Below, piece by piece: positions 44,598 through 62,310 of a stretch of 64,000 nucleotides of DNA. Position numbers and translations under genes: made by a program. The stretch is from Candidatus Omnitrophota bacterium (GTDB taxonomy: Bacteria; Omnitrophota; Gorgyraeia; DTHP01), in assembly GCA_023819145.1 (NCBI GenBank), contig JAMWCW010000005.1, positions 22,566 through 86,565 on the forward strand, read 5' to 3'. Below the pieces are notes generated by a model. It was not told the origin of the DNA. It ran no database searches and saw nothing but the letters and a program-made list of their open reading frames with translations. Every line of letters starts with the position of its first letter. Position 1 is the stretch's first letter.

Positions 44598-46715
44598 TTA
44601 GGGAATTTCTCCAAAGTATAGCAGAAAGTATTCTTCAATTTCTTCTCGCAGACCAGGAAAACTTTCTGGTGATTTTTTTAAAGTTTGATAAGCTGAGGTT
44701 AATGCTTGACGAAACATTTCGTAAGCAATTGATTCTCGAAATTGCTCAAGAGGGATATCGGTGTTAATGACTACATCGGCATTTTCAAAAGTAGGATAGA
44801 GATATTTATCCTCACCCATCCGTACATATTTCCATTGTTCAATTGAACGCATTGTTCCCCAGGGAGTGGGCGAGCGAGTTTGCATATCTCTGGCGACTCG
44901 TCGTGGTAGCCTGATGTAGGGGGAAGCATCTATCGCCACCTTTACGGTGGGGAATATGCTTTCTTCAATAATGGGATTTCCTTTCTCATCTGTAAAAATC
45001 AAAGGATTTAGAGCATGTATCCCTTCGATTATGAGAATATCCCCCGGATTAAGTGTTATCTTTATCCCTGAATGAGGGATGCTTCTTCCGCTTTTAAAAT
45101 CAAAAATAGGAATTTCTACAGTTTCTCCAGCAAGTAAACGTGCCAAATCTTCTTGGAATTTTGCGATGTTAACTGCACGGGGATGTTCAAAATCTTTGGC
45201 TATTTCCTTGCCATTTTCATCAACAATACTCGGGGTGTCTTCGCGATCTACAAAATAGTTGTCCATATTGATTTTCCATACATTTGTTCTTCCCCGGGCG
45301 AGGAGATATTTTTCAACTATTTCTGCACCGGGAGATTTGCCGGCAGCGGAAACTCCGCCAATGCGAATTATTGCAACTTTATTTGGGTAACGCAGGATTT
45401 TTTCTTCAATTTTCTCCAGTGCAGGTTGATACATAGAATCTGAAAGTCCAAAAAGTTCGAATTCTGTTCTTTGTTCTTCTACTCTCGCTAATCTATACGC
45501 ATCATCCAGATGGTCATCCTTTGCCACAGCGATTTCGCCTTGGGTATTTATTAGGAGAGTAATTAAGCGCGCTTTTCTCAGGTCTTCAAGCATTCCTTTG
45601 GAGGCTTTATAGAAAGTGTCAAGAGCAATTTTATAAGTTCCTCTTTCATCTTGCATTATACGGAATCCTACGACTTCAAGGGTTTCAGGGTTATAGGCTA
45701 AATATCTTAGCGGTTCTTCACCAAAGCCAATATTTTTGCGCACAAAAGCATAGATTTCTATGCCACTTCCTGCTCTTAAAATTTCTCTTGCCCGTTCATC
45801 ATATTTTTTAACTGCTTGAGCAAATTCTTCTGTTTTCACAGTTAAGGGTTTTTCTTCAGGCATAAATATTTCGGGGAATAAGAGGTAATATTTTAAGGCA
45901 TGTTCTTCTAAGAATAGATAATCATTTCTTGAATAATCTCGCCAATTTACAATTGCCCGTTCTCTGACCGAAGGCGTTACATTTTGAGCAATTTTATATA
46001 AAGAAGTATGAGCAGGAATGGGAATAATATCTTGTTTTGCGCCTTCAATGAAATGGATTCTCCTTTCTTGACTTTCGCCTAAGCATCCATAAACCCAGCT
46101 CAATTGCCACCACAGCCTTATATTGTAAGGATACTTTTCAATCATTTCTTTGTATAACTTTTCTAATTCCTTGTATACCTCAAGAGAAGTAGGGTTATCC
46201 CTTTGTTGAGTCAACAATTCATTTTCCCATTCAAAATAGGATGGCTCGATTGCTTCCGTGGCAAATTGGGGCATTTCTCTCTGCTGATAGGTTATTACCA
46301 TTGTGCCATTTTGGTTGGTGCATTCTTTAAATTCATATTTCTGTAATGCTTCATATATTAAGAAGGTTAAATGATTTATCTGGTATTCTTCGGGGGTTAT
46401 CCTCCCTGTTTGAAACAGAAAATGTCTTGCTAATTTTCTAAAAGCAGGCTCACTAGGGGAGATACGGAGTTGTCTAAGCGCTTCAAAAGTTTCTGCGACT
46501 AAACTTGGTTCAATTCGAAAATTACTAAGACCAGATATCTCTCCAAGTATCTTTGTTAATAAATCTGCCCAAGGTTCTTTAATGGTAGCATCTTTGGGGG
46601 TTAAGATTCTTCTTGTGTTGAGTGATTCAGAAGATAGTGGTATGTATATTTGATTGAGGATAAATGTCAAAAAGATTATTATTACCAGCATTGTTTTAAA
46701 ACTTTTTTTATTCAT
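44598..46715 (-). CDS. Uridine kinase-family P-loop kinase fused to a ~440-aa N-terminal region of unknown function (N-terminal hydrophobic segment)
   Basis: C-terminal ~260 aa match Udk/PRK family: P-loop IGGVSAAGKS, DHP.A.., IP.YDF.., EGI.AL, IRL.RRV.RD motifs. The N-terminal 440 aa have no recognisable domain and begin with a signal/anchor-like helix. Confidence 0.7.
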   Translation of the reverse strand: MNKKSFKTMLVIIIFLTFILNQIYIPLSSESLNTRRILTPKDATIKEPWADLLTKILGEISGLSNFRIEPSLVAETFEALRQLRISPSEPAFRKLARHFLFQTGRITPEEYQINHLTFLIYEALQKYEFKECTNQNGTMVITYQQREMPQFATEAIEPSYFEWENELLTQQRDNPTSLEVYKELEKLYKEMIEKYPYNIRLWWQLSWVYGCLGESQERRIHFIEGAKQDIIPIPAHTSLYKIAQNVTPSVRERAIVNWRDYSRNDYLFLEEHALKYYLLFPEIFMPEEKPLTVKTEEFAQAVKKYDERAREILRAGSGIEIYAFVRKNIGFGEEPLRYLAYNPETLEVVGFRIMQDERGTYKIALDTFYKASKGMLEDLRKARLITLLINTQGEIAVAKDDHLDDAYRLARVEEQRTEFELFGLSDSMYQPALEKIEEKILRYPNKVAIIRIGGVSAAGKSPGAEIVEKYLLARGRTNVWKINMDNYFVDREDTPSIVDENGKEIAKDFEHPRAVNIAKFQEDLARLLAGETVEIPIFDFKSGRSIPHSGIKITLNPGDILIIEGIHALNPLIFTDEKGNPIIEESIFPTVKVAIDASPYIRLPRRVARDMQTRSPTPWGTMRSIEQWKYVRMGEDKYLYPTFENADVVINTDIPLEQFRESIAYEMFRQALTSAYQTLKKSPESFPGLREEIEEYFLLYFGEIP

Positions 46716-46798: not shown

Positions 46799-47581
46799 AT
46801 GGCATTTATTGCGCTAATTACTGATTTTGGTAATAGAGATGAATATGTGGGATTGGTTAAGGGAGTGATTTTAGAGGTAAATCCACAAGCTCAAATTATT
46901 GACCTTTCTCACGAAATTCCTCCTCAGGATTTAATCTGGGCCTCCTTCCTTTTAGGGAACGCTTATAAATTTTTTCCCAGAAAGACAATTTTTCTTTGCG
47001 TAGTTGATCCGGAAGTAGGGACAGAAAGACGGACGATTATTGTGAAAACAAAAGACTATTTCTTCGTTTGTCCGGATAATGGCATCTTAACCAAGGTTTT
47101 AGAAAGAGAAAAAGTGGAGCAGATAGTCGAAATAAGAAATAAGAAGTTTTTCCTGAAAGAAATCAGTTCTACCTTTCATGGTCGGGACATTATGGCACCA
47201 GTGGCGGGATATCTTTCCAAAGGAGTGGCTTTAGAAAAATTCGGACCTAAGATTAAAAACATAAGAAGGATTAAATTACCAACGCCCATAATGAGAAAAG
47301 ATTGTATGATTGGAAAAGTTATTCATATTGACCATTTTGGTAATTTGGTTACCAACATAGAGAAAGAATCATTGAGAAACAAGGTTCAAGCCTCTTTTTC
47401 TATTGCAATCAAGGGAAGGAAAATTCATAAGATAAATAATGCTTATGCGGAATCGAATAAGAGAAGACTTCTTGCCATCTGGGGAAGCAGGAATTTATTG
47501 GAGATTTCTATAAATTTGGGGAATGCTGCTAAAAAATTGATGGCAGGAAAAGGAGAAAAGGTTATTATCTATTTTTATTAG
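46799..47581 (+). CDS. S-adenosyl-L-methionine hydroxide adenosyltransferase family protein (DUF62, SalL/FlA-like)
   Basis: ALITDFG..D.YVG..KGVI......IIDLSHEIPP.D.......L.....FP..T...CVVDPEVGT.RR.I......FVCPDNG, the DUF62 N-domain signature. Confidence 0.8.
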   Translation: MAFIALITDFGNRDEYVGLVKGVILEVNPQAQIIDLSHEIPPQDLIWASFLLGNAYKFFPRKTIFLCVVDPEVGTERRTIIVKTKDYFFVCPDNGILTKVLEREKVEQIVEIRNKKFFLKEISSTFHGRDIMAPVAGYLSKGVALEKFGPKIKNIRRIKLPTPIMRKDCMIGKVIHIDHFGNLVTNIEKESLRNKVQASFSIAIKGRKIHKINNAYAESNKRRLLAIWGSRNLLEISINLGNAAKKLMAGKGEKVIIYFY

Positions 47582-47585
47582 GCAT

Positions 47586-48461
47586 ATGGTGATTAAAATT
47601 TTTATTTTTTTGAAGTATTTTTTTATTATAAGCGTGGGTATTTTTGCTTTTACTTTCTCACTCCTTATCCGCAATACTCTTCTTTCCCGTTGGCATGATA
47701 ATACTTTACCTTCCGAGTATGGAATGCCTTTTGAAGAGATTAATTTTTATAGTAAAGATAAAATAATGCTTAAAGGATGGCTAATTTTAAACAATAAAGA
47801 TTCATCCACAATAATCTTATGTCACGGTTTAGGGACAAACAAATCAGAGCTCTTAAGTATTGCTAAATTTATTTATGATGCGGGCTTTAATATATTTCTG
47901 TTTGATTTTCGCGGACACGGAGAAAGCCAAGGTAAGGTTTGTTCTTTAGGTTATTTTGAGCAGAAGGATTTAGAAGGGGCAATGGACTATCTTTATCAAA
48001 GGTTTGAGCATAAAAACATTGGTGTTTTTGGTTTATCCTTAGGTGGAGCGGTGGCGATTATGGTGGCGTCCAAAGATGAGCGGATTAAGATAGTAGTTTC
48101 TGAAGGTGCTTATAAAGAACTATATTCCTCGATGCTTTATTTTGCAAAAGTTTTTTATTCTTTGCCTAAAATCCCCTTTAACATCTTCTTAAGAATAGCA
48201 TATTTTTTGCGCTTTGGAATTGACCCTCAAGATGTTTCTCCTCAAAAAGTAATTACCCACATTTCTCCTCGCCCAGTTTTTATTATCAACGGAGAAAAGG
48301 ATAAACAAATTCCTCCCCAAAACGCTTACACGCTCTTTGAAAGAGCACATGCACCCAAAGAAATTTGGATTATTCCTCAAGCAGACCACGGTGAGGGTTA
48401 TGGTTTATATCCGGAAGTATATTCCCAAAAAATAATTAATTTTTTGAAAAAAAACATATGA
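47586..48461 (+). CDS. Alpha/beta-fold hydrolase with N-terminal membrane anchor
   Basis: Nucleophile elbow GLSLGG, HG...RGHGES region, C-terminal Asp/His (PQADHGEGY); 291 aa. Confidence 0.75.
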   Translation: MVIKIFIFLKYFFIISVGIFAFTFSLLIRNTLLSRWHDNTLPSEYGMPFEEINFYSKDKIMLKGWLILNNKDSSTIILCHGLGTNKSELLSIAKFIYDAGFNIFLFDFRGHGESQGKVCSLGYFEQKDLEGAMDYLYQRFEHKNIGVFGLSLGGAVAIMVASKDERIKIVVSEGAYKELYSSMLYFAKVFYSLPKIPFNIFLRIAYFLRFGIDPQDVSPQKVITHISPRPVFIINGEKDKQIPPQNAYTLFERAHAPKEIWIIPQADHGEGYGLYPEVYSQKIINFLKKNI

Positions 48462-48596
48462 TTGAAACTCTCGGAGATTATTTTAAAGACGCAGTTTGGA
48501 ATTTACAGGCTACGTTCAGAGTTAATTAATTGTTTTTGCATAAATTTTTGGCGCAGAGGATAATGTTATAAAAACTATATTTAGGGAAGAATTTAG

Positions 48597-49718
48597 ATGT
48601 TTGCTCTTGATACTGAAAAGAAGTTGAAAATACTGGGGCAAGAAGCACGTTTTGAATCTTGCGGATTACCAAGAAATTTTGGACATAGATGGCACGACAG
48701 GTTCATCTACCAGGCAGTAGGAGAAGGTGGTTTTTGTGTTAATCTTTTTAAAATTTTACAGACTAATAGCTGTAGAAATAATTGTTTCTACTGCGCTAAT
48801 AGAAGAGATAGAGACTTTGCAAGATTCTCCTTTACGCCTCAAGAGTTGGCAAAAATATTTATCGAATACTATCGCCAGAAAAAGATTCAAGGACTTTTTC
48901 TTTCATCTGCCTTAGAAAATGATGCAGATAATACTCAGGGGAAGATGCTTGAGACAATAAAGATTTTAAGGAAAACTTATGGTTATCAAGGATACATTCA
49001 TTTTAAAATTCTTCCCGGCGTAGACAAAAAACTCATTTTTGAAGCAGCAAAATTAAGTAATAGGATTTCGCTTAACCTCGAGGCGCCGGGTGATGTTTAT
49101 CTTAATAAAATTGCCAAAGAAAAAAATATGCATAAGATTCTTATCCCCACCTTAGAAAATATGGTAGAAGCAGTAAAGTTTTATCCTTTAAAATCAGGAA
49201 TCACTACCCAGTTAATTATCGGAAGCGGTAGTGAGACGGATAAAGAAATCATTTTCTTTGCTGATGAAATTTATAATAGGTATAAAATAAAGCGCATTTA
49301 CTACAGCGGTTTTGCCCCTGTAAAAGGTACTCCTTTGGAATACCATCCCCATTGTTCTGACCTCCGCGAATATCGTATTTATCAGGCAGATTTTCTTTTG
49401 AGGAAATATGGTTTTAAGAAGGAAGAACTTGTGTTTGATGAGCAGGGTAATCTTTTGCCAAATATAGACCCAAAATTTGCCTGGGCAGAAAAACATCCTG
49501 AAAGATTTCCCGTAGAGATAAATAGAGCAAGTTTTGAAGAACTTTTGCGTGTTCCGGGCATTGGGAGATGTTCGGCAGAGAAAATTATAAAATTCCGCAG
49601 GATTAAAAAGATTGCAAATTTAGAAGACCTTAAAAAATTGGTTCCTCTATTGAGACGCACTCAAAATTTTGTTACATTAAACGGGAAATTCCTTCCTTTA
49701 AAAGAAAAAAGAAGATGA
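48597..49718 (+). CDS. Putative DNA modification/repair radical SAM protein (TIGR03916-like) with C-terminal helix-hairpin-helix
   Basis: Radical SAM CxxxCxxC (CRNNCFYCANR), TIM-barrel-length core, C-terminal HhH (ELLRVPGIGRCSAEKIIKFR); 373 aa. Confidence 0.75.
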   Translation: MFALDTEKKLKILGQEARFESCGLPRNFGHRWHDRFIYQAVGEGGFCVNLFKILQTNSCRNNCFYCANRRDRDFARFSFTPQELAKIFIEYYRQKKIQGLFLSSALENDADNTQGKMLETIKILRKTYGYQGYIHFKILPGVDKKLIFEAAKLSNRISLNLEAPGDVYLNKIAKEKNMHKILIPTLENMVEAVKFYPLKSGITTQLIIGSGSETDKEIIFFADEIYNRYKIKRIYYSGFAPVKGTPLEYHPHCSDLREYRIYQADFLLRKYGFKKEELVFDEQGNLLPNIDPKFAWAEKHPERFPVEINRASFEELLRVPGIGRCSAEKIIKFRRIKKIANLEDLKKLVPLLRRTQNFVTLNGKFLPLKEKRR

Positions 49719-51874
49719 AGATTGAACAGCTGGTAAAATTTGGTATTTCCGAATATTTCATAGATAGATTTAAGGAAGAAAAGATTAATTATCTCTACCC
49801 TCCTCAGTCAGAGGCAATTGAACGCGGGTTACTTAGGCAAGAGAAAAATTTCTTACTTGCCTTTCCTACCGCTTCGGGTAAGACTTTAAATGCAACTCTT
49901 TTGGCAATAAAAACCCTTAACGAGAAAAGAGGCAAAGTTGTTTACATTGTTCCCTTAGTGGCTTTAGCAAATGAGAAATACATTTATTATAAGCATCTCT
50001 TTTCTAATTTTAAAGTTGCCTTATCGGTCGGTGACATAGATTCTCCGGAGTCTTGGTTGGCAAATTATGATTTTATAGTCGTTACTACAGAAAAATTTGA
50101 TTCTCTTATCAGGCACGGTGTTGAGTGGGTTTCTCAGGTGCAACTATTAATTGTAGATGAGATACACCTTATTAATGATTATTCACGCGGACCTACTCTG
50201 GAAATAGTGATTACTCAGTTAAGAAAGCTTTCTCCCCAGGCAAAGATTTTAGCTCTTTCTGCGACAGTGAGCAATGCAGAGGAGATGGGGATGTGGCTTA
50301 ATGCAGAATTGGTAAAAAGCGATTTTCGGCCAGTAAAGTTATACGAGGGAATAGTATTTGACCACCTTCTTCACTTTATGGACAAAGAGGGATGCATTCT
50401 TAATGATAGGCTCTCTGTGGAAGAGGCAATTACCGAGCAGACTTTAAAGATAAAAAAACAGATACTTTTCTTTGTCGCAAACCGTAGAAATGCTGAATCC
50501 CTTGCTGAACGCTTAGGTAAAATAACGCAGAAATTTCTTGCTCTAGAGGATAAAGAACGTCTTCGTCACTTAAGTAAGGAGATAATTTCTGTTTTAGAAA
50601 CACCCACCCATCAATGTCGGAGGTTGGCAAAATGTGTTGATGAAGGTACCTCTTTTCACCACGCCGGGCTCTTATCTCGACAGAGAAAAATTGTTGAGGA
50701 AGGATTTCGCCAGGGGTGGATTAAGGTAGTAGTGGCTACTCCTACGCTTGCATTAGGGGTAAATCTTCCTTGTTTTCGCGTAGTCGTCCGTGATGTAAAA
50801 CGGTATTATCCTGGGTTGGGTTCAGAATACATCCCCACTTTAGAATATAAGCAATTCATTGGGCGAGCAGGACGTCCTCAGTATGATGAATTTGGAGAAG
50901 CAATTCTTATAAGTCGTTCCGAAAGAGAAAAGGAGGAATTAATTCAGAGGTATATTTATGGAAAACCGGAAGAGATTAATTCTAAACTTGCACAGGAATC
51001 AGTTTTACGTATGCATATCCTTGCCCTCGTTGCTTCTGAATTTTGTGTTAATTTTGAGGATTTGGATGATTTTTTTAAGCTGACTTTTTTTGGCTTTCAA
51101 TATCGGGATATCGGTCTTATAAAGGAAAAGATTAGTTCGGTTATTGAAAACCTTAAAGATTGGGGATTTATTTTTGAAAAATCGGGGCATTATAAAGCAA
51201 CAAAGCTGGGTAAAAGGATAACTCAACTCTATTTAGACCCACTTACAGGGTACGATTTTATTAATTCTTTAACGAAACTTGTCCACAAAGAAGAAATTTC
51301 TGACTTGGCAATTCTTCTGATTATTTCTTTGGCCAAAGAGATTTCTCCACCCCTTCCATTACGCGAAGAAGATTTTTATAATCTGGGAGAATTTCTAATG
51401 AGGATGCAAGACGTTTTTTTAAACAAACCTCCTTCCATCTGGGAAGATAACTATGAAGAATTCCTTTCTGCTTTAAAGTTGTCCCTTGTTTTTGACGCCT
51501 GGATAAACGAGGATAATGAGGAGGAAATTTTGGATAAGTTTAAACTAACTCCTGGTGAATTTCATGCTAAACGTGAAGTTGGAGATTGGCTTATTTATTC
51601 TTTGGAAGAATTATCAAAAATATTAAAATTAAACATCCCCAATGTTAGAAAATTAAGAATTAGACTTCACTATGGTGTTCGTGAAGAGTTATTGGAACTG
51701 GTCAGTTTGCGAGACGTGGGTCGCAAACGGGCGCGCCGACTTTTTAACTCTGGTTTTAAAAATATCTTTATTCTGCGAAAGGTCGAAGAAAAAGATATCG
51801 CTCGTATTGTTGGTCCCCATATCGCGCGCGTGATTAAAAAACAGATTTTACTTTCTTCTGAAAAGAAAAAATGA
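49715..51874 (+). CDS. Hel308/Ski2-like superfamily 2 DNA helicase
   Basis: Q-motif (YPPQSEA), Walker A PTASGKTL, DEIH box, SAT motif (LSATVSN), motif VI (GRAGRP), C-terminal winged-helix/HhH-like region; the 4-nt ATGA overlap with the upstream radical SAM gene suggests translational coupling. Confidence 0.8.
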   Translation: MKIEQLVKFGISEYFIDRFKEEKINYLYPPQSEAIERGLLRQEKNFLLAFPTASGKTLNATLLAIKTLNEKRGKVVYIVPLVALANEKYIYYKHLFSNFKVALSVGDIDSPESWLANYDFIVVTTEKFDSLIRHGVEWVSQVQLLIVDEIHLINDYSRGPTLEIVITQLRKLSPQAKILALSATVSNAEEMGMWLNAELVKSDFRPVKLYEGIVFDHLLHFMDKEGCILNDRLSVEEAITEQTLKIKKQILFFVANRRNAESLAERLGKITQKFLALEDKERLRHLSKEIISVLETPTHQCRRLAKCVDEGTSFHHAGLLSRQRKIVEEGFRQGWIKVVVATPTLALGVNLPCFRVVVRDVKRYYPGLGSEYIPTLEYKQFIGRAGRPQYDEFGEAILISRSEREKEELIQRYIYGKPEEINSKLAQESVLRMHILALVASEFCVNFEDLDDFFKLTFFGFQYRDIGLIKEKISSVIENLKDWGFIFEKSGHYKATKLGKRITQLYLDPLTGYDFINSLTKLVHKEEISDLAILLIISLAKEISPPLPLREEDFYNLGEFLMRMQDVFLNKPPSIWEDNYEEFLSALKLSLVFDAWINEDNEEEILDKFKLTPGEFHAKREVGDWLIYSLEELSKILKLNIPNVRKLRIRLHYGVREELLELVSLRDVGRKRARRLFNSGFKNIFILRKVEEKDIARIVGPHIARVIKKQILLSSEKKK

Positions 51875-51913: not shown

Positions 51914-52513
51914 ATGAAAAAAGGAATTATTCTCTATATCCTGCTTGTTCTCGGGTTATTTGTCATTGTTTTATTAGGCATACATTATTCCGCACTCTTA
52001 AAAGAACGCGCAGCCCTACAAAAAGCAGTAATTAATTTTGAGAATAAAATAGTTGAGTATAAGAAAGCGATGGACTTAAAAGAGCAGGAATTTGAAGCAA
52101 AGGTTTCAGACATGGCTAATGAAAGAGAGAAGTTAATGCAACAGATTGATGAGATAAACGGGAAGTTAATACAAACTCAGAATTTACTTTCTCAGATAAA
52201 ACAGGAGGAAGAGAATTTAAAGGCTGAAAATTTATCATTGACGGAAAAGGCTAAGAATCTCGAAGTCCAGCTCTACAATTTAAACGAAGAAAAATTAGAA
52301 TTAGAGCGGAAGATTTCTTCTTTAAGTGAGTTGAGAAAAGCATTGAGAGAGGCGAAATTGAAGGAGATTCAAGAGAGAAGGATTGAGCTTAAACAACGGA
52401 ATGCCGAAGGACTTCTTCTGGGAAACCGTGGGTATCTCGTAAAGGATGGTAAGCCGACCATAAATCCCAAATATATTATTCATGTTTTCCCCCCTCAGAC
52501 AACCCAGGAATGA
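51914..52513 (+). CDS. Hypothetical membrane-anchored coiled-coil protein
   Basis: N-terminal TM then a long heptad-like K/E/L-rich region; 199 aa. Confidence 0.5.
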   Translation: MKKGIILYILLVLGLFVIVLLGIHYSALLKERAALQKAVINFENKIVEYKKAMDLKEQEFEAKVSDMANEREKLMQQIDEINGKLIQTQNLLSQIKQEEENLKAENLSLTEKAKNLEVQLYNLNEEKLELERKISSLSELRKALREAKLKEIQERRIELKQRNAEGLLLGNRGYLVKDGKPTINPKYIIHVFPPQTTQE

Positions 52514-53232
52514 GAGAAGCGAATATCTTGGTATCCTCGGAACTAATAAAGGATGATTTTTTTTATTACTTTAAAAGATGGAAATCCCACCCCGTAGGTG
52601 CTTTTTTCTCAAATCGATTGATAGATTTTTCTCAGGTAGAGCATCGCAGATACCTCTATCAGAGATTGGGCATAGAAAGAACCAGGTTAGTCTTGCCCGA
52701 ACAGGAACACGGTGGTAAAGTAGAATTTGTAAGTTTGGATAATAGGAATAAGAAGTTTTTTGCTGATGCTTTGATTACTCAGGAGAGAGAAATAGCCCTG
52801 GGGGTACTTACTGCGGATTGCCTTTCTATATTTCTATACGATACAGTTCGGAAGGCTATTGGGATAGTGCATGCAGGTTGGCGAAGCACTAAAGAAGAAG
52901 TCCTAAAAAATACTGTCACTAATATGCAGAGGCGTTTTTCTACAATGCCTTCTGATTTACTTGTAGCATTCGGTCCGAGTATAAGAGTATGTTGCTATAA
53001 AGTGAATAAAGATTTACAAAGCTATTTTCCTAAACATATTCAAGGTAGAAAAGAGGAGCTATTTTTAGACCTCAAGGAAGCAAATTTAGAACAGTTGCGT
53101 TCTTTAGGCGTAAGGGATGAGAATATTTTTGACTGCGGGATGTGCACTTTTTGTCAAAACCATGAATTCTTTTCTTATCGCAAAGAAGGTAAGGATGTAG
53201 GAAGGATTATTTCATTAATTATGTTAATGTAA
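52510..53232 (+). CDS. pgeF: Purine nucleoside phosphorylase/peptidoglycan editing factor YfiH/PgeF family (DUF152, Cu-oxidase_4)
   Basis: ...QEHG......LTADCL.I.LYD.....IG.VHAGWRS...................FGPSI..CCY.V, the YfiH His/Cys/His motif series. Confidence 0.8.
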   Translation: MREANILVSSELIKDDFFYYFKRWKSHPVGAFFSNRLIDFSQVEHRRYLYQRLGIERTRLVLPEQEHGGKVEFVSLDNRNKKFFADALITQEREIALGVLTADCLSIFLYDTVRKAIGIVHAGWRSTKEEVLKNTVTNMQRRFSTMPSDLLVAFGPSIRVCCYKVNKDLQSYFPKHIQGRKEELFLDLKEANLEQLRSLGVRDENIFDCGMCTFCQNHEFFSYRKEGKDVGRIISLIMLM

Positions 53233-53278: not shown

Positions 53279-54673
53279 ATGAAGATAAAATTCTTGGGAG
53301 GAGTAAAGTCTGTAACCGGTTCCCATCACCTCATAGAGGTTAAAGGAAATAATTTCCTTTTAGATTGCGGACTTTTTCAGGGTAAGCGTCAAGAGGCACG
53401 GTTATTTAATGAAAATCCCAAAGTGGATTTATCCAAACTTGAGGCAGTCGTTCTCTCCCATGCGCATATCGACCATAGCGGTAATATCCCTACTTTATCG
53501 AGGTTGGGGTTTAAGAAACACATTTATTCTACCTTGGCTACCTACGACCTATCTAATGCGATGTTAAGAGATTCAGCCTATATTCAAGAGAAGGATACTG
53601 AGTTTTTGAATAAGAGATTGAAGAAAAAGAAAAAACCTTTACTCAGTCCACTATATACTATTGAGGATGCAGAGAGAGCTTTGGGGCTTTTTATGGGCAT
53701 TGGATATCATAAGGTATTTAGTCTGAGTCAGGAAGTAAAAGTAGAATTTTTTGATGCAGGGCATGTCTTAGGTTCTTCTCTCATCCTCTTGGAAATTACC
53801 GAGGATACAGTTCGTCCAAAACGGCTTGGATATATTTTAGATTTGGGAAGGCAAAATTTACCATTTTTGAAAGACCCAGAATTTATTCCCGACTTGGATT
53901 ATATAATTATTGAATCTACTTATGGCAATCGTTTGCACCCCGAATTTAGTGAGGTGAAAAAAGAACTGGCTGATTTGATAAATCGTACCTTTAAGAGAAA
54001 GGGGAAAATAATTATTCCTGCCTTTGCTTTGGAGAGGACTCAGGAGATTATCTGGTGTTTGAGTGATTTGTGGAATAAGGGAATGATTCCTGCCATCCCT
54101 GTTTATGTAGATAGCCCTTTAGCGATAAACATTACAGAGATTTTTCGCCTCCATCCCGATTGTTTCGACGCAAGGACTAAAAATATGCTTTTGATGGGGC
54201 GTGACCCATTTGGCTTTGAAAATGTTGTTTATACTCGTTCTAAAGAAGAATCGCAGGCGCTTAATGATTTAAAAAAACCCGCCATAATTATTTCTGCTTC
54301 GGGCATGTGTGAAAACGGAAGAATTCTGCATCATTTAAGACACAATATTGAAAACCCCAAAAACACCATATTGATTGTGGGATATATGGCCCAGGATACC
54401 CTTGGCAGGAAAATTGTAGAGAAGGAAAAAAAAGTGAAAATCTTCGGCGAGGAATATAGACTTAAAGCAGAGGTAGTGATAATGAATGCTTTTAGCGGTC
54501 ATGCGGATAGAAACGATTTACTCAAGTATGTAAGAAGAACTAAAGAATCGGTTAAGAAAGTTTTTGTAGTTCATGGCGATCCAGACCAGTCCGAGGCTTT
54601 GGCTGAAGGTATTAAGGAAGTAGGGGTAGATAATGTCTATGTACCCGAAGTTGGGGATGAGGCGGAGTTATAA
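53279..54673 (+). CDS. MBL-fold metallo-hydrolase of the beta-CASP (CPSF/RNase J-like) nuclease family
   Basis: HxHxDH (SHAHIDHSG), beta-CASP-length insertion, C-terminal His motifs (SGHAD); 464 aa. Confidence 0.8.
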   Translation: MKIKFLGGVKSVTGSHHLIEVKGNNFLLDCGLFQGKRQEARLFNENPKVDLSKLEAVVLSHAHIDHSGNIPTLSRLGFKKHIYSTLATYDLSNAMLRDSAYIQEKDTEFLNKRLKKKKKPLLSPLYTIEDAERALGLFMGIGYHKVFSLSQEVKVEFFDAGHVLGSSLILLEITEDTVRPKRLGYILDLGRQNLPFLKDPEFIPDLDYIIIESTYGNRLHPEFSEVKKELADLINRTFKRKGKIIIPAFALERTQEIIWCLSDLWNKGMIPAIPVYVDSPLAINITEIFRLHPDCFDARTKNMLLMGRDPFGFENVVYTRSKEESQALNDLKKPAIIISASGMCENGRILHHLRHNIENPKNTILIVGYMAQDTLGRKIVEKEKKVKIFGEEYRLKAEVVIMNAFSGHADRNDLLKYVRRTKESVKKVFVVHGDPDQSEALAEGIKEVGVDNVYVPEVGDEAEL

Positions 54674-55961: not shown

Positions 55962-56630
55962 ATGATTCCCTTACATGATGAAAATCCTACAGAAAGGTTC
56001 TCTTTTGTAACCATTGTTTTGGTTATTGTTAATTCCATTGTTTTTCTCTATGAGCTTTCCTTAGGTAGTTCATTAGAGATAACTATCCGTCGTTATACCC
56101 TTATTCCATATAATTTTATAAACTATTTTGATTTTTCTCAATTACGTACGCTTTTTAGTTCACTTTTTTTGCATGGGAGTTTATTGCATCTTTTGGGAAA
56201 CATGCTTTACCTTTGGATTTTTGGCAACAATATTGAGGACGTTTTGGGGCACTTTAAATTTATCTTGTTCTATTTTCTCTGCGGAATTTCCGCTTCCCTT
56301 GCACACATTCTTACCAATCCCCATTCAACTATTCCTACTTTAGGTGCAAGTGGAGCGGTTTCCGGGGTATTAGGGGCATATTTTATTCTTTTCCCTCAAG
56401 CAAGGGTAGTTACCATAATTCCTATTTTCTACTTTATCAGAATAGTTAAAATTCCTGCTTTTTTCTTTCTTGGATTCTGGATTGCGGTTCAATTTTTATC
56501 AGGGATAATTAGTTCGGGAATGGACAGCGATTTAGGTGGAGGGGTTGCTTGGTTTGCTCATCTTGGTGGTTTTTTTGCAGGAGTGTTACTCTTACCTCTA
56601 TTCTACCAGCGAGGCAGGAGAAGATATTAG
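55962..56630 (+). CDS. Rhomboid-family intramembrane serine protease
   Basis: Six TMs, the GASGAVSG catalytic Ser motif and a downstream AHLGG His; 222 aa. Confidence 0.88.
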   Translation: MIPLHDENPTERFSFVTIVLVIVNSIVFLYELSLGSSLEITIRRYTLIPYNFINYFDFSQLRTLFSSLFLHGSLLHLLGNMLYLWIFGNNIEDVLGHFKFILFYFLCGISASLAHILTNPHSTIPTLGASGAVSGVLGAYFILFPQARVVTIIPIFYFIRIVKIPAFFFLGFWIAVQFLSGIISSGMDSDLGGGVAWFAHLGGFFAGVLLLPLFYQRGRRRY

Positions 56631-59600
56631 ATTTAAGGAGGATTTAATTATCTTTGTGTATATTTTTTGTCTGAGATTATAGCGTGTTGTGAGCAAATTT
56701 AAAAAGACATCCTTCTGATAAAGTGATAGTTTAGCATAAGGAATGTTCTGTATCTCGGATAGAGCCTTTCTCAAATAGAAATATTCTGGAGCAACCAAAT
56801 CAATAACTTCGCTTAGATTCCGTAAACTCATTATTTTTTTGTATAATTTTTTTAACTCACTATTTTCAAAAAACTGCAATAGTTTTCTTATTTCCCTTTC
56901 TTCCGCAATACTGATTTTGTATCTTTTGATTATTTTTTTGATTAATTTTTTTTGTTGATTAAAGGAAAGTTCTTCCCAAGGGGGGAAACCGAGTTTTTTG
57001 GGCCCCATAAGATTTATAAGCGCGGTTAAGGCTTTAATGAATTTTATCTCTTTATCCTGAGGAAGATAGATTCTGTATTTTTTGTTTTTATATAGCTTTA
57101 ACAAAATTCGCGCCCTACTAAGTTCATTGAGAGTTTCCCAGTTATACTCACGCAAATTTTCGGGCAGTATTTCCTTATGGGTAAGTTTTTCTAACAGATT
57201 TTTTGCAGGGAATTTTTCCCAATCCATTTCAGTAAGAAAAGATAAAAATATTCTTAACAATTCTCGAGGGCCCAACGTATGATTGATTTCCAAATTATAT
57301 TCCAAGATATTTTCGATAATTTGTTCTCTCTCTAAGGGTTTATTTTTATTAGACAGTTCTTTTTTCAATAACTTAATTCTATCCCGCATCCCTAAGAATT
57401 CAAGAGAAGAGAATGATGGGCTTTCTCCATAATTTCCTGATAGCCATGCAAGCATTGGTCCTATTATCCATGACCAGATAAATACTGGCCACCCATAGAA
57501 GATAAGCGAAGGGTCGGCTAACCCTGAAAAAACAGGAATTACAGCAAAAGTTAAGGAGAGAATGGGAGTAGCGATTAGACGTAAATATACTTCAAAAAGG
57601 GAAGTTTTTTTGCCAAGGATTTTTTCTACAAAAGGAGTGGTAAACCAAGGGATAGAGGTGTTAGGGTTGAAAATAATAAACCAGATTTTAGAGATGACAA
57701 TAAAAGGAATGTGCACTACATTCATAAGGAGGATAGAACTAGAATAGATTGTTTCTATAAATCCTCTTTTTAATATGTCTAAAACCGTTCTTTGAGAGGG
57801 GACAATTTCTAAAAGAAGGATGAGGGGAAATAAAAAACCCGCCAGGGATGGAAAAGATTGGAAGAGAAACAAAAAGACCCAGTTTGCGGAAGTAATATTC
57901 TCCATCCAGTTTAATAAAAAGGGTGCATAGAGCCAGGCAAAGAAGCCAATGGTCGATATAATCACTATGCTTACTAAGCGATTAATCAGACCTGGATATA
58001 GAGAAAAAATTGACTTCATAATATAAATAATTATACGGCGGAGAACATATAGACTAATAATAAAGGCACTAAATTTCCCCCAATTTCCGGGGAAAGCGTT
58101 ATTTCCTAATTTATATATGTAGAAAGAAATAAGCAATAATAATAGAAAAATCAGTAATTTCTCTTTTTTCTTCTCGAATAAAATTAGACGTTCAAGAAGG
58201 GGGACAACGGCTTTGGGTAAAAAAATTAGAATTATTAAAACAGACCAGAAGATATGCCAAGCAATAGCAGGAGATTTTATGGTGAGTATCCCGGGGATAA
58301 CCAGAGAAATCGTTCCTATAAGCATTAACCATATACAGTAATAAAGAGGGGAGAACGCTAAGCGTTTTATTAGCCAGATACGCAATATTTTTGCTAAATA
58401 GGAGGGGGCTTCGTTTTTTTCTTTAAGATATTTAATTCTTACATAAATATGGCCTAACCAAAATTTAAATTCAGAAAAGTTTATTTTTAGAAGGGAAAAA
58501 ACCATTCTGAAAAAATCAATAAAGACTCCGAAATAGGTTTCGTATTCTAATAGAAGAAGATCCCCACCTAACCATCCCTCAAGCCGTTTTAGAAAAGAGA
58601 TGTAGTTAGGGGGGATATTTTCGATAAGATTTTTACTTTTTAGGTAAGGATAAGAATACACAAGAGCAGTTTTAAGATGCATTGCTTCCCAGTGGTCGTG
58701 GGTTCTTGCTAATGGCGGTATAGCTTCTTTAAACAGTATATTTTTGACATAAGCATCGACCAATTTTGTCATCTTGCCATAAGCGGAAGATTCTCCATAT
58801 AAAGAGAAAATTGCTCTTGCGCTGAAACGATACATCTGTTGTGCCCAGGAATGGAAACGGGCAAATGTGGACTGGCCCTGATTGGCAAAACAGATTTCCG
58901 GTTGAAGCATCAAATAGGGGTCTTCTTCATGGAGATTATGTATGAGTTTGCTGTTAAGATAAGAGAGCGTTTGCGGTTGGAATTCGTCATCTGCATCAGT
59001 TTGGTTTATGATTTTTATGCCACAGTCTGCGGGGATAAAATTTCCATTTTCGTCTCTAAGTATTTGCGCATCTTTAAATCTTAAATGTATTCCGTAGGGC
59101 AACTTCTCTCCATTTTTTAAGACGATTTCTCCATCTTTATTGAAAATATAATCCTCCTTTTTCGCTAAGAGTTCCTCTTTAATTAAATTTCCATTTTTTA
59201 TTAAAACATCCTTTTCTTTGACAACTACATCATCCGTTGATTCTTTTTGCCAAAGATAGACATCTCCTACAGTATAAGAACCCGAGGGATAAATTAAATA
59301 ATCACCATCCAAAGGATTAATCACGAGAGCATTTAATTTTTCATCGAAGTAGACATAGTCTTTTAGAGAAAGGATCTTTCTTATCCTTATATTATTTTCC
59401 TTGTCTTTATACCAACCGCCTGCTTCCGCCAAAAGGGTGGTTTTTATCAGAGCATAGTTTGTATAATCAAGAGCAATTTCTTCTTTATGCAGTTCTTTTA
59501 TTTTATCCTTTTTTGCTATCAACAAAGGTTTCGCTATACCTTTCTCAAATACGTCGCCTATATACCAAATATTACCTTCGTTGTCTAAATAAAAACCGTC

Positions 59601-61418
59601 CTTTTCATTAACCACAAATCCCGAATCTGTAATTTTTATTTTATTAATCCAAGAATTATGAATATAGATATATTTATCTTTAGGGTTCGCTATAACTTTT
59701 TCGTTTGTTTCTGTGAGACGGACAAAGAAATCCTCTTCTTTTTCCCTATACATAAGATAGACCAAATCATTTTCTCTGTGCAAAAAAGTTTCCTTGATAT
59801 TTTCCTTTGGTTCTATTAAATTGTCCTCAAAAAAAAGATTTCCTTCTTTGTCCAGCCTAAATCCTCGTCCTTCCTGGACTAAATAGCCACCGAAGACCCT
59901 TTCTTTAAGTTTTATTAGGGTGTCTTCTATAAAATATTCTTTTTCTATACCCTTTTTCCCAATATGGAGGTTATAAATGTTTCCTATGATACCATTTTTC
60001 ATAAATTCATCTGCTTGGGAGAAAGAGATAATTTTCTCTTTTACAAGATTTTTTATGCTTAACCAAGATATATTAAGCAGACGGTCAAAAGCTAACCTGC
60101 GGTAATCAACCCCTTTTATTAATTTTTTTTCAATGGTGATATCTTTTTTGACAAAGTGGAATTTTTTATCCTTAAGCTTGTAGAGGTCGTAAGAAAAATC
60201 TATACGATATTCTCCCGCCCTTGCCCAAATTTTGCCATTGGAGGCATCAATAAGATTAGAAACAGAATCAAGAATTAATTTTTTACCTTCGTTTGTATAT
60301 ACAATCTGCACAAATATAAAAGCATAATTTTTACCTTCAAAATTTTTATCTCTGGATTCTAAAAATTCTATTCTGCCTTCCGAATCTATCTTCCATTGCT
60401 TGGCATTAAACAAAAGTTCTCCCTGAGGAGAAAAGATTGCTCCCTGAGAGATAAGGTAGTATTTTTCTGAATTTGTTTTATCAATAAGATAACTTTCAGA
60501 CAAAAATTTTATATCTTCATATATTTCTTCTTGGGGAGGGTATTTCTTAAGATTTAATTTCTCTCTCAGAAAGAAATTTCCTTTATAGTGAAGGAAGTAT
60601 TGAAATTCATCTTTTTTACCTAAAGAATAGAAAGGGATATGTTCTTGAATTTCCCCATCAAGACAGACAATTTTCTGACGCCTTGCATCAAAACTGTGCG
60701 AAACATAGTTCAAGGGATGCCAAACCCCTGTGGTTAAAATTTGATAATCACTCATATAACCGCCGGGCTTTTTCAAGAACATTGGGTTGTAAGCTTCTTG
60801 GTTGCGTGCAAAGAGGAACACTTTACTGCCAAGTTCTTTCTTTGCGTCCAGAATCAAACGAATTTCTTCTTCTACAAGAGATTCTTCCTCGGTGTCACTA
60901 TGGTAAATAAAAGCAAGATGGCTCTTGGGGTTGAGGTTGTTCCGTAAGGCACGAAGTCCTTGGGTTATACAGGCATAGACCTCAGCGTTACTTTTTGCTT
61001 TTTGAGGTATATAGAGGGCAGAGAAGAAATTTGCGGGAATTATCTCTGTTTCTTGAATAAATGGGTCATCTTTAAGATAGAGGGGTTTTCTAAAAAAATA
61101 GAGAAATGTTGAGACCAGTAGATAAGGGATTTCGGAGAATATCTCTTTAAATAATATACTTACTAAGGAAATCGCTAATAATGATGAGCTAAACCAGTGG
61201 AATACGATAAAAGCAAATATAGAAGTAACAAAGAGGGTTAAGAATTCACAGGGCAATAAAAAACAAGTTCTAATGAGGAGGAGACGTTTTAGTCTCTTTT
61301 TCTCAAGGGGTGTTTTTACTTTGATAAATTTAAAGAGCGTAGAGCAGGTTTCCCCTAAAATTATTATAAATTTCCAGGCAATAATTAAAAAAAGTATAAT
61401 AGATATTGCCAAAATCAT
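56598..61418 (-). CDS. Giant (1606-aa) polytopic membrane protein of unknown function with internal beta-rich D-x-E/D-G-N repeats
   Basis: Three N-terminal TMs, ~900 aa extracytoplasmic region with repeated ..D.EGN/KDG.. blocks (aa ~330-800), a ~10-TM region (aa ~1010-1330) and a K-rich ~270-aa C-terminal tail; start 2 nt after the stop of the upstream radical SAM gene. Confidence 0.55.
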   Translation of the reverse strand: MILAISIILFLIIAWKFIIILGETCSTLFKFIKVKTPLEKKRLKRLLLIRTCFLLPCEFLTLFVTSIFAFIVFHWFSSSLLAISLVSILFKEIFSEIPYLLVSTFLYFFRKPLYLKDDPFIQETEIIPANFFSALYIPQKAKSNAEVYACITQGLRALRNNLNPKSHLAFIYHSDTEEESLVEEEIRLILDAKKELGSKVFLFARNQEAYNPMFLKKPGGYMSDYQILTTGVWHPLNYVSHSFDARRQKIVCLDGEIQEHIPFYSLGKKDEFQYFLHYKGNFFLREKLNLKKYPPQEEIYEDIKFLSESYLIDKTNSEKYYLISQGAIFSPQGELLFNAKQWKIDSEGRIEFLESRDKNFEGKNYAFIFVQIVYTNEGKKLILDSVSNLIDASNGKIWARAGEYRIDFSYDLYKLKDKKFHFVKKDITIEKKLIKGVDYRRLAFDRLLNISWLSIKNLVKEKIISFSQADEFMKNGIIGNIYNLHIGKKGIEKEYFIEDTLIKLKERVFGGYLVQEGRGFRLDKEGNLFFEDNLIEPKENIKETFLHRENDLVYLMYREKEEDFFVRLTETNEKVIANPKDKYIYIHNSWINKIKITDSGFVVNEKDGFYLDNEGNIWYIGDVFEKGIAKPLLIAKKDKIKELHKEEIALDYTNYALIKTTLLAEAGGWYKDKENNIRIRKILSLKDYVYFDEKLNALVINPLDGDYLIYPSGSYTVGDVYLWQKESTDDVVVKEKDVLIKNGNLIKEELLAKKEDYIFNKDGEIVLKNGEKLPYGIHLRFKDAQILRDENGNFIPADCGIKIINQTDADDEFQPQTLSYLNSKLIHNLHEEDPYLMLQPEICFANQGQSTFARFHSWAQQMYRFSARAIFSLYGESSAYGKMTKLVDAYVKNILFKEAIPPLARTHDHWEAMHLKTALVYSYPYLKSKNLIENIPPNYISFLKRLEGWLGGDLLLLEYETYFGVFIDFFRMVFSLLKINFSEFKFWLGHIYVRIKYLKEKNEAPSYLAKILRIWLIKRLAFSPLYYCIWLMLIGTISLVIPGILTIKSPAIAWHIFWSVLIILIFLPKAVVPLLERLILFEKKKEKLLIFLLLLLISFYIYKLGNNAFPGNWGKFSAFIISLYVLRRIIIYIMKSIFSLYPGLINRLVSIVIISTIGFFAWLYAPFLLNWMENITSANWVFLFLFQSFPSLAGFLFPLILLLEIVPSQRTVLDILKRGFIETIYSSSILLMNVVHIPFIVISKIWFIIFNPNTSIPWFTTPFVEKILGKKTSLFEVYLRLIATPILSLTFAVIPVFSGLADPSLIFYGWPVFIWSWIIGPMLAWLSGNYGESPSFSSLEFLGMRDRIKLLKKELSNKNKPLEREQIIENILEYNLEINHTLGPRELLRIFLSFLTEMDWEKFPAKNLLEKLTHKEILPENLREYNWETLNELSRARILLKLYKNKKYRIYLPQDKEIKFIKALTALINLMGPKKLGFPPWEELSFNQQKKLIKKIIKRYKISIAEEREIRKLLQFFENSELKKLYKKIMSLRNLSEVIDLVAPEYFYLRKALSEIQNIPYAKLSLYQKDVFLNLLTTRYNLRQKIYTKIIKSSLNLISSPASLVE

Positions 61419-61419
61419 C

Positions 61420-62310
61420 TTAGTCCAGTCGTTTTATCCCTAATGAAAGAGCAATCTCGCGTGCTTCTAAATATTCATCCCTCGTTATTGCTCTGCCTAT
61501 ATGAGGGAAGTGATGTGCTTCTCCACAAGGAGTATATTGGGACATAATGTTTACATAACTCTCAGAAGATATATTTCCAGCAATAAATTTCATAATCTCT
61601 TTTGTTTCTTTCGTTTGATTAGGCATTACCAGGTGTCTAATAAGTAAACCTCGCTGGGCAACACCATTTTCTATAATTAAATTCCCCACTTGGCCATGCA
61701 TTTTTTTAAGAATTTTTTTTAAATTTTCAAAATAATCACTACAGGAGGATAATTCTTGGGATATCTGAGAAGAATAAAATTTTGTATCGGGCATATAGAT
61801 GTCAATGATGCCTTCTAAAATATCGATAACCTCTTCCGATTCGTACCCTCCACAGTTATAAACCAAAGGGATTGTGAGTCCTTCTTCTATGGCAAAAGTT
61901 AAGGCTTCTAAAATCTGTGGAACAAAATGTGTTGGAGTGACCAAATTTATATTATGGCATTCAAGTTTTTGTAAGAAGAGCATAATTTTAGCTAATTCTT
62001 GAGAAGAGATTTCTTTTCCCTCGCCTAAGTGACTTATCTCATAATTCTGGCAGAAGACACACTTAAGGTTGCAGTGTGTAAAAAATATTGTTCCTGAACC
62101 GTGTTCACCTACTAGACATTTTTCTTCACCAAAATGGGGGAAATAAGAAGCGACAGTTGCTTTTTCTCCACCTCCACAGAATCCCTTTTCTCCTTCGGCA
62201 CGTTTAGCTCGACATTTGCGAGGACAAAGTTGACAGGGGGATAACCTTTCTTTTAAATATTCTAATTTCTTCGTTATTTTGTCTCTATTCTTGAGATATA
62301 GAGGGAGCAT
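61420..62310 (-). CDS. PflX-like (COG1313) radical SAM enzyme, pyruvate formate-lyase-activase-related
   Basis: N-terminal CQLCPRKC...GFCG motif, GSGTIFFTHCNLKCVFCQNYEIS radical SAM cluster motif, 296 aa. Confidence 0.7.
   Translation of the reverse strand: MLPLYLKNRDKITKKLEYLKERLSPCQLCPRKCRAKRAEGEKGFCGGGEKATVASYFPHFGEEKCLVGEHGSGTIFFTHCNLKCVFCQNYEISHLGEGKEISSQELAKIMLFLQKLECHNINLVTPTHFVPQILEALTFAIEEGLTIPLVYNCGGYESEEVIDILEGIIDIYMPDTKFYSSQISQELSSCSDYFENLKKILKKMHGQVGNLIIENGVAQRGLLIRHLVMPNQTKETKEIMKFIAGNISSESYVNIMSQYTPCGEAHHFPHIGRAITRDEYLEAREIALSLGIKRLD

Follow-up and report, generated by a model that had tools for sequence, protein, structure and literature searches.

Does a gene for a radical S-adenosylmethionine (SAM) protein that overlaps the gene for a Hel308-type helicase form a dedicated two-gene system with it, or have the two genes simply come to lie side by side? 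The question is raised by a stretch of 64,000 nucleotides (nt) from a Candidatus Omnitrophota genome (GenBank assembly GCA_023819145.1, contig JAMWCW010000005.1, positions 22,566 to 86,565 of the forward strand; hereafter the window), for which a preliminary description had proposed a translationally coupled pair acting on modified or damaged DNA or on invading nucleic acid. We favor, with a probability of about 0.65, the reading that these are two separate nucleic-acid-maintenance genes made neighbors by one lineage-specific insertion, and not a dedicated two-component system. The coordinates, lengths, and ATGA overlap of the two open reading frames (ORFs) had been given exactly, and the features of the pair are:

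48597–49718, + strand: rSAM gene, 373 amino acids (aa), radical SAM protein with a helix-hairpin-helix (HhH) domain; AlphaFold2 (AF2) model with a predicted local distance difference test (pLDDT) score of 87.3
48771–48794, + strand: CxxxCxxC [4Fe-4S]/SAM motif of rSAM, CRNNCFYC, residues 59–66
49512–49637, + strand: HhH nucleic-acid-binding domain of rSAM (Pfam), residues 306–347
49715–51874, + strand: gene for the Hel308-type superfamily 2 (SF2) helicase, 719 aa, full-length
49715–49718, + strand: tetranucleotide ATGA, in which the rSAM stop overlaps the helicase start

Both ORFs are long and match their families very strongly, so neither is a product of chance. Overlaps of 4 nt between co-directional genes are common among prokaryotes, and the junction is therefore by itself no evidence of a functional link. 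We surveyed related rSAM loci in one genome per GTDB species (80 loci; here and below, L numbers label loci) and found by tblastn that Hel308 adjoins rSAM at 2 of the 80, L011 and L020, both from close Omnitrophota relatives. When the four genes on either side of rSAM were clustered without bias, no neighbor dominated; the largest cluster, an ABC ATPase, was present at 9 of the 80 loci. Direct adjacency is limited to four close lineages: the window, L001, L011, and L020. The arrangements are given below with the percent identities of rSAM and helicase to the window proteins, "hydrolase" standing for an alpha/beta-hydrolase gene:

Window: hydrolase, rSAM overlapping Hel308
L011 (rSAM 73%, helicase 80%): hydrolase, rSAM, 4-nt gap, Hel308
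L001 (rSAM 74%, helicase 75%): hydrolase, RtcA, rSAM overlapping Hel308
L100 (rSAM 72%, helicase 74%): hydrolase, 359-aa ORF, RtcA, rSAM, APH-like kinase, three ORFs, Hel308
L020 (rSAM 66%, helicase 68%): hydrolase, two small ORFs, rSAM, 83-nt AT-rich spacer, Hel308
L010 (no rSAM, helicase 62%): hydrolase, transglutaminase, two ABC transporter genes, Hel308
L097 (no rSAM, helicase 61%): hydrolase overlapping the Hel308 start
L098 (no rSAM, helicase 56%): RtcA, HAD, Hel308; other neighbors unrelated
L007 and L008 (no rSAM, helicase 55%): unrelated neighbors

In a neighbor-joining tree of the top 118 Hel308 hits (midpoint rooting), the rSAM-bearing genomes form one subclade (70/100) inside an Omnitrophota clade (100/100), with L010 and L097 as sisters; a single gain event therefore suffices. 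Approximately 17 kb surrounding L001 is syntenic with the window, and hence conservation of the pair among these relatives reflects inheritance and is not independent evidence of a link. At the more distant bacterial Hel308 loci (L007, L008/9, and L098/9) rSAM is absent. The junction varies as well: the ATGA overlap occurs in the window and L001, and is replaced elsewhere by the short gap of L011, the spacer of L020, or, in L100, by 4.7 kb holding four genes. Thus neither the coupled rSAM/Hel308 system of the preliminary description nor translational coupling as a feature of such a system is borne out, since the adjacency belongs to one Omnitrophota subclade, is broken or lacks rSAM in close relatives, and has no conserved junction. 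That description had also staked its proposal on the genes being neighbors in some other genome and on rSAM not belonging to an unrelated family; strictly, both points stand, as the pair recurs in a few close genomes and the protein is related to TIGR03916. What fails is the two-gene system itself, which is not worth pursuing as a defence or repair module.

The stable element at this locus in the Omnitrophota clade is a backbone that runs from the alpha/beta-hydrolase through Hel308, a 199-aa protein, PgeF, and a beta-CASP ribonuclease (RNase) to Dtd. In the window, the parts of this backbone that flank the pair, together with a site in the gap before rSAM, are:

47586–48461, + strand: alpha/beta-hydrolase gene, anchoring on its upstream side the variable slot in which rSAM lies
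48535–48564, + strand: promoter-like site TTTGCA-18-GATAAT, a weak consensus match only, within the 135-nt gap 5′ of rSAM
51914–52513, + strand: gene for the 199-aa protein, whose sequence reads as a hydrophobic N-terminal segment and, beyond it, a heptad-rich stretch like a coiled coil
52510–53232, + strand: PgeF/YfiH-type (Cu-oxidase_4) gene, Pfam 199.5 bits, overlapping the 199-aa gene; conserved backbone
53279–54673, + strand: gene for a beta-CASP metallo-beta-lactamase ribonuclease (CPSF-like), Pfam Beta-Casp 147.5 bits and RMMBL 59.6 bits; conserved backbone

Hydrolase homologs lie 5′ of the slot in L001, L010, L011, L016, L020, L097, and L101, while homologs of the 199-aa protein follow the helicase in L001, L010, L011, L020, L095–L097, and L100, and every member of the Omnitrophota clade keeps the 199-aa protein, PgeF, and the beta-CASP RNase downstream of the helicase. 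Because the 199-aa gene follows the helicase even where rSAM is missing, it is a more consistently conserved helicase neighbor than rSAM. The interval between hydrolase and Hel308 (48462–48596 in the window, with equivalents in L010, L020, L097, and L100) is a hotspot of gain and loss, its content ranging from zero to eight genes; the L100 interval includes the APH-like kinase and three ORFs (313, 355, and 196 aa) that match no family. Insertion of one rSAM module, perhaps accompanied by RtcA, into this slot, followed by vertical descent, would account for all of the data. A tblastn search of the window, including the 135-nt gap 5′ of rSAM, gave no hit to an RtcA remnant.

No terminator-like site was found on the + strand between 47400 and 55200, making co-transcription of the downstream genes plausible; rSAM, Hel308, the 199-aa gene, PgeF, and possibly the beta-CASP gene are probably transcribed together in a housekeeping string. 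The Shine-Dalgarno sequence before the helicase is weak, and that of the 199-aa gene, AAAGGAGG, is strong. GC fractions of rSAM (0.354) and the helicase (0.376) match that of the whole window (0.376), which also encodes MutS (1091.8 bits), MutL, PheT, a V/A-type ATPase, Dtd, and five tRNAs. Both proteins have identical database entries, from a Candidatus Omnitrophica MAG (contig of 115 kb). The locus is ordinary chromosomal context, neither a contaminant nor an island.

Each gene is a recognizable relative of a known family, and the pair is a lineage-specific juxtaposition of variant members. For rSAM, the reading as a CxxxCxxC radical SAM enzyme with a C-terminal HhH domain is confirmed by the CRNNCFYC motif and by Pfam matches to Radical_SAM (38.1 bits, cutoff 29.5), HHH_3 (36.4 bits, cutoff 27), and HHH (25.7 bits, above cutoff). 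Cys59, Cys63, and Cys66 are invariant in an alignment of 21 homologs. A sequence search of the PDB with rSAM gave matches limited to the HhH domain and the cluster loop, such as that to the ComEA-related 2duy (E = 1.9e-4). The resemblance to TIGR03916 that had been suggested also holds: this family is the best NCBIfam match (326.7 bits, E = 2.4e-97), at a score below the curated cutoff of 343.5 bits and with profile positions 42–380 of 415 covered. TIGR03916 scores fall into two groups, with canonical proteins at 662.7 (Bacteroides) and 488.1 (L077) bits and relatives of the window protein at 325.7–345.8 bits. The overall architecture of the family (an N-terminal CxxxCxxC barrel followed by a C-terminal HhH domain) is shared by rSAM, which is approximately 39% identical to the Bacteroides and Azospirillum members.

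Canonical TIGR03916 proteins differ from rSAM in pairing with a TIGR03915/DUF4130 protein, with or without a UDG/UdgX domain. The two families are reported to be "arranged always in operon configuration" in approximately 20% of bacterial genomes and to be LexA-regulated in Verrucomicrobia (PMC4951493), and a preprint of 2026 predicts that the DUF4130 partner and the radical SAM protein associate tightly in a complex. In agreement with this literature, and with the usual partner named in the preliminary description, a partner lies directly downstream at six of six canonical loci (Bacteroides, Parabacteroides, Acetoanaerobium, Azospirillum, Caballeronia, and L077). A partner hidden Markov model (HMM) built from these six seeds scores 302–757 bits at the canonical loci; it found nothing at E ≤ 10 in a six-frame translation of the 64-kb window or in the other fetched loci outside the canonical controls. 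Searches for a hidden TIGR03915 partner by single-seed phmmer, the six-seed HMM, and jackhmmer likewise gave nothing outside the canonical control loci, and the partner is absent from 79 of 80 related rSAM loci. As the partner HMM is blank in the window and in related loci, rSAM is, by these profile comparisons, a member of a partner-less sister subfamily of TIGR03916, from which it differs in two defining features, the score cutoff and the obligatory partner. This subfamily is found in metagenome-assembled genomes (MAGs) labeled Omnitrophota, Aerophobetes, Atribacteria, Latescibacterota, WOR-3, Anaerolineae, Clostridia, and others, so that a radical SAM + HhH subfamily is widespread without its supposedly obligatory DUF4130/UDG partner.

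A second trait of the family is a C-terminal motif resembling the beta-clamp-binding consensus QLxLF, which is itself typically C-terminal (PMC4549789). The pattern Q[LM]x[LF][WFL] ends 57 of 82 rSAM homologs, in variants that include QLFLWEE[LI], QMxLL, and, in Atribacterota copies and Azospirillum, the exact sequence QLSLF; such tails are thus shared with the wider TIGR03916 family, although the QLxL[FW] tail is a trait observed here and not a curated TIGR03916 criterion. No publication joining a clamp-binding motif and a radical SAM protein was found in our literature search. The tails point the still-uncharacterized superfamily toward a putative clamp-tethered action on DNA. The window protein, which ends in ...LPLKEKRR (C-terminal region at 49680–49718), lacks the tail, as do the L020 and WOR-3 copies. 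Tail loss as a sign of dependence on the helicase was considered and rejected, since the L001 and L011 proteins adjoin the helicase and keep their tails and the WOR-3 copies are tail-less with no helicase present.

Elsewhere, partner-less rSAM genes adjoin a gene for Endonuclease V (EndoV; by Pfam in L017, and by matching size and position only in L047), a second radical SAM protein (8 loci; SplB-like by our reading of its sequence, with Pfam Radical_SAM sub-threshold), MazG (6 loci), or a TatD-like protein (5 loci, assigned from sequence only). Neighbors of these kinds lie at:

L017, 4290–4958 (EndoV)
L047, 9148–9816 (EndoV by size and position)
L035, 552–1712
L038, 11298–11603
L050, 2868–3638

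Taken together, these neighbors point loosely toward DNA damage and nucleotide sanitation. Spore photoproduct lyase, the best-established case of radical SAM chemistry on DNA damage, offers a precedent for a possible role of rSAM in this direction. Mechanistically, rSAM would bind a [4Fe-4S] cluster through Cys59, Cys63, and Cys66, cleave SAM reductively to a 5′-deoxyadenosyl radical, and use this radical to abstract hydrogen from nucleic acid gripped by the HhH domain. The substrate would most likely be a DNA lesion or base, because most homologs carry the clamp-type tail and have EndoV, TatD-like, MazG, or SplB-like neighbors.

The helicase is, as had been recognized from its hallmark motifs, a member of the Hel308/Ski2 group, and it is a full-length Hel308. 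SF2 motifs I, II, III, V, and VI are all intact (PTASGKT, residues 51–57; DEIH, 148–151; SAT, 182–184, within LSATVSN; TPTLALGVN, 342–350; and GRAGR, 383–387), and the protein exceeds the Pfam cutoffs for DEAD, Helicase_C, HTH_61 (25.2 bits), and Helicase_dom4_arc (86.7 bits). Alignments to the archaeal Hel308/Hjm structures 2zj2, 2p6r, and 2va8 run end to end at E values of 1e-122 to 1e-149 (1.2e-149 for 2zj2; residues 1–709 on 1–680 of 2p6r), and the domains follow one another in the same order, the winged-helix and ratchet (domain 4) regions among them. The C-terminal HhH-like domain 5 gives a weak Pfam match (HHH_5, 18.7 bits, cutoff 27), while the Hel308 structure alignments reach residue 709. 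Scores against the NCBIfam equivalog models, which were trained on archaeal proteins, fall under both cutoffs: 723.7 bits for PRK02362 (cutoff 887; residues 1–713 on profile positions 1–705 of 739) and 517.2 bits for NF040935 (cutoff 1200). Besides these scores, the protein differs from archaeal Hel308 in its bacterial host and in lacking a tail like the PCNA-interacting peptide (PIP).

A review describes Hel308 as absent from bacteria (PMC7776575), in keeping with the rarity that had been claimed for such helicases there, and our literature search found no publication on Hel308 in Omnitrophota. In the tree, a bacterial clade of Omnitrophota, NPL-UPA2, and further relatives (for only some of whose members taxonomy or context was verified) has a neighbor-joining bootstrap of 100/100 and sits beside the clade that holds every named hit from Aenigmatarchaeota (DPANN archaea). 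The C-terminal PIP-like motif Qxx[LIMV]xx[FYW] ends 53 of 97 archaeal-side sequences (background 0.4%) and 0 of 21 bacterial ones. Its absence fits a transfer of the gene from archaea with adaptation to a host that lacks PCNA. A true, well-supported Hel308 clade therefore exists in bacteria despite reviews stating its absence, and the loss of the archaeal tail suggests adaptation after the transfer. As a Hel308 probably derived from archaea, the enzyme is expected to move 3′ to 5′ on single-stranded DNA and to unwind forks or D-loops (PMC7776575, PMC10946056). Both proteins may serve one broad process, the tolerance of DNA damage in an anaerobe, with no joint action being required. As a side result, a metagenome scan with the helicase as sole query returned just two TARA loci, whose matches (28% identity across 130 residues) were set aside as spurious.

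The reading of two separate genes has to be set against several observations that weigh on the other side. In every genome of the subclade examined, down to identities of 66% for rSAM and 68% for the helicase, rSAM lies upstream of Hel308 on the same strand, a retained order that is compatible with weak selection for co-expression. Furthermore, RtcA stands beside rSAM in NPL-UPA2-type genomes and beside Hel308 in L098, and this three-way pairwise association hints at a shared pathway. Beyond the subclade, our sample comprised five bacterial Hel308 lineages (L007, L008/9, L098/9, L010, and L097), so that rare independent pairings elsewhere may have been missed.

RtcA lies directly 5′ of rSAM in three Omnitrophota lineages, L001, L012, and L016 (TIGR03399, 367.6 bits, above cutoff), and RtcA-rSAM occurs also in the NPL-UPA2/Nitrospirota-labeled MAGs L004 and L015. 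In L098, which has no rSAM, RtcA is found one gene 5′ of Hel308 in the order CCA/polyA polymerase, Macro-NUDIX, RtcA, HAD, Hel308, and in L007 Archease and RtcB lie 5 kb upstream of the helicase. The RtcA genes are located as follows:

L001, 6985–7998
L004, 6186–7187
L012, 1286–2296
L015, 6271–7266
L098, 4347–5369

The window differs from these loci in having neither RtcA nor RtcB, and we know of no described Rtc operon that includes rSAM or Hel308, no exhaustive search having been made. The recurrence of RtcA beside each of the two genes in separate lineages is a modest lead.

One alternative would make these genes a lineage-restricted repair module, with or without RtcA, in which the helicase would expose a damaged strand or translocate to it, the lesion would be processed by the radical chemistry of rSAM, and the strand ends would be left to RtcA for tidying. 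The order rSAM then Hel308 on one strand in six of six sampled subclade arrangements speaks for such a module, as do the RtcA-rSAM genes of L004 and L015 and the RtcA-HAD-Hel308 genes of L098, and the ATGA overlap with its weak Shine-Dalgarno sequence suggests coupled translation in the window and L001. The adjacency, however, has a single origin, L100 tolerates a four-gene insertion between the two genes, and the sisters L010 and L097 retain Hel308 with the genes downstream of it but have no rSAM. The NPL-UPA2 locus L004 likewise has rSAM and no Hel308 within the 11.8 kb examined; a Hel308 homolog (P0190) is present on a 3-kb contig of an NPL-UPA2-named source, which may or may not be the genome of L004. 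Loss of the clamp-binding-like tail from the window and L020 proteins, whose genes directly adjoin the helicase, would fit a module too, but L001 and L011 keep the tail beside the helicase and the tail-less WOR-3 copies show the same loss. We consider this module unlikely.

A broader proposal, that RtcA, the partner-less clamp-tailed rSAM, and bacterial Hel308 constitute one undescribed damage-repair pathway of anaerobic candidate phyla, seems to us more doubtful still. Genomic linkage among its components would be loose, with the Omnitrophota arrangement as the most compact form.

The same neighbors could instead place both genes on RNA, as a cluster for RNA repair or quality control, where a Ski2-like helicase would act together with RtcA and the beta-CASP ribonuclease. 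The RtcA genes directly 5′ of rSAM in L001, L012, and L016, the neighborhood of Hel308 in L098 (CCA/polyA polymerase through HAD), the Archease and RtcB genes of L007, and the conserved downstream Dtd and beta-CASP gene, the latter with an RNA-specificity domain, all lend themselves to this idea, and RNA is the substrate of the ASH-Ski2 relatives (PMC10946056). The helicase is nevertheless collinear with Hel308 proper through domain 4 and, by the structure alignments, probably domain 5, and Hel308 "mainly acts on DNA", a preference ascribed to domain 5 (PMC10946056). The beta-clamp-type tails of the rSAM family, the pairing of canonical relatives with UDG-like proteins under LexA regulation (PMC4951493), and the lack of RtcA in the window itself argue in the same direction, and an RNA role is accordingly improbable.

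The helicase shares with HamB, the related Ski2/Hel308-like helicase of the Hachiman system (HamA + HamB), a match in the helicase core only: the best PADLOC HamB hit (E = 3.6e-51, 172 bits) aligns residues 20–209 with profile positions 222–420 of 995, and the PDB HamB structure 8vx9 is matched at E = 5.8e-22. A Hachiman-like anti-phage defence system with rSAM as effector or sensor, which these matches and the variable slot 5′ of the helicase might recall and which would fit the action on invading nucleic acid suggested earlier, is largely refuted and barely credible, given that the full-length match is to Hel308, that PADLOC gave no hit for rSAM and 10 flanking proteins and hence detected no HamA (DUF1837) or other defence protein near the helicase, and that the surroundings are housekeeping genes with 17-kb synteny and GC content that does not deviate.

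The favored reading, two maintenance genes joined by one insertion, leaves several genes of the window to be described for their own sake. Directly in the backbone, the 199-aa protein has no Pfam, NCBIfam, or PADLOC match. The beta-CASP/RMMBL protein conserved 3′ of the helicase is a CPSF-like RNase without KH domains, whose best NCBIfam matches are type VII CRISPR Cas14 (399 bits, cutoff 800) and archaeal aCPSF1 (309 bits, cutoff 580). Two genes 5′ of rSAM, at 46799–47581, lies a gene for a SAM hydroxide adenosyltransferase (DUF62; SAM_HAT_N, 193 bits) that is syntenic in relatives; a tie between this gene and SAM turnover is speculative.

Farther away, three consecutive + strand ORFs of 520, 395, and 356 aa at 34332–38752, just upstream of mutS, have no Pfam match and lie in the lowest-GC part of the window (0.33–0.34). 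At 56598–62310, on the − strand, a 1606-aa ORF with many hydrophobic stretches and no Pfam match immediately precedes a second radical SAM gene (296 aa) of the same orientation, which is unrelated to rSAM; homologs of the 1606-aa ORF occupy the same position in L001 and L002. Finally, the − strand gene at 44598–46715 encodes a 705-aa protein with a C-terminal PRK/uridine-kinase domain (62.9 bits), and an ARMT1-like domain annotated in the L001 counterpart makes this an unusual fusion.

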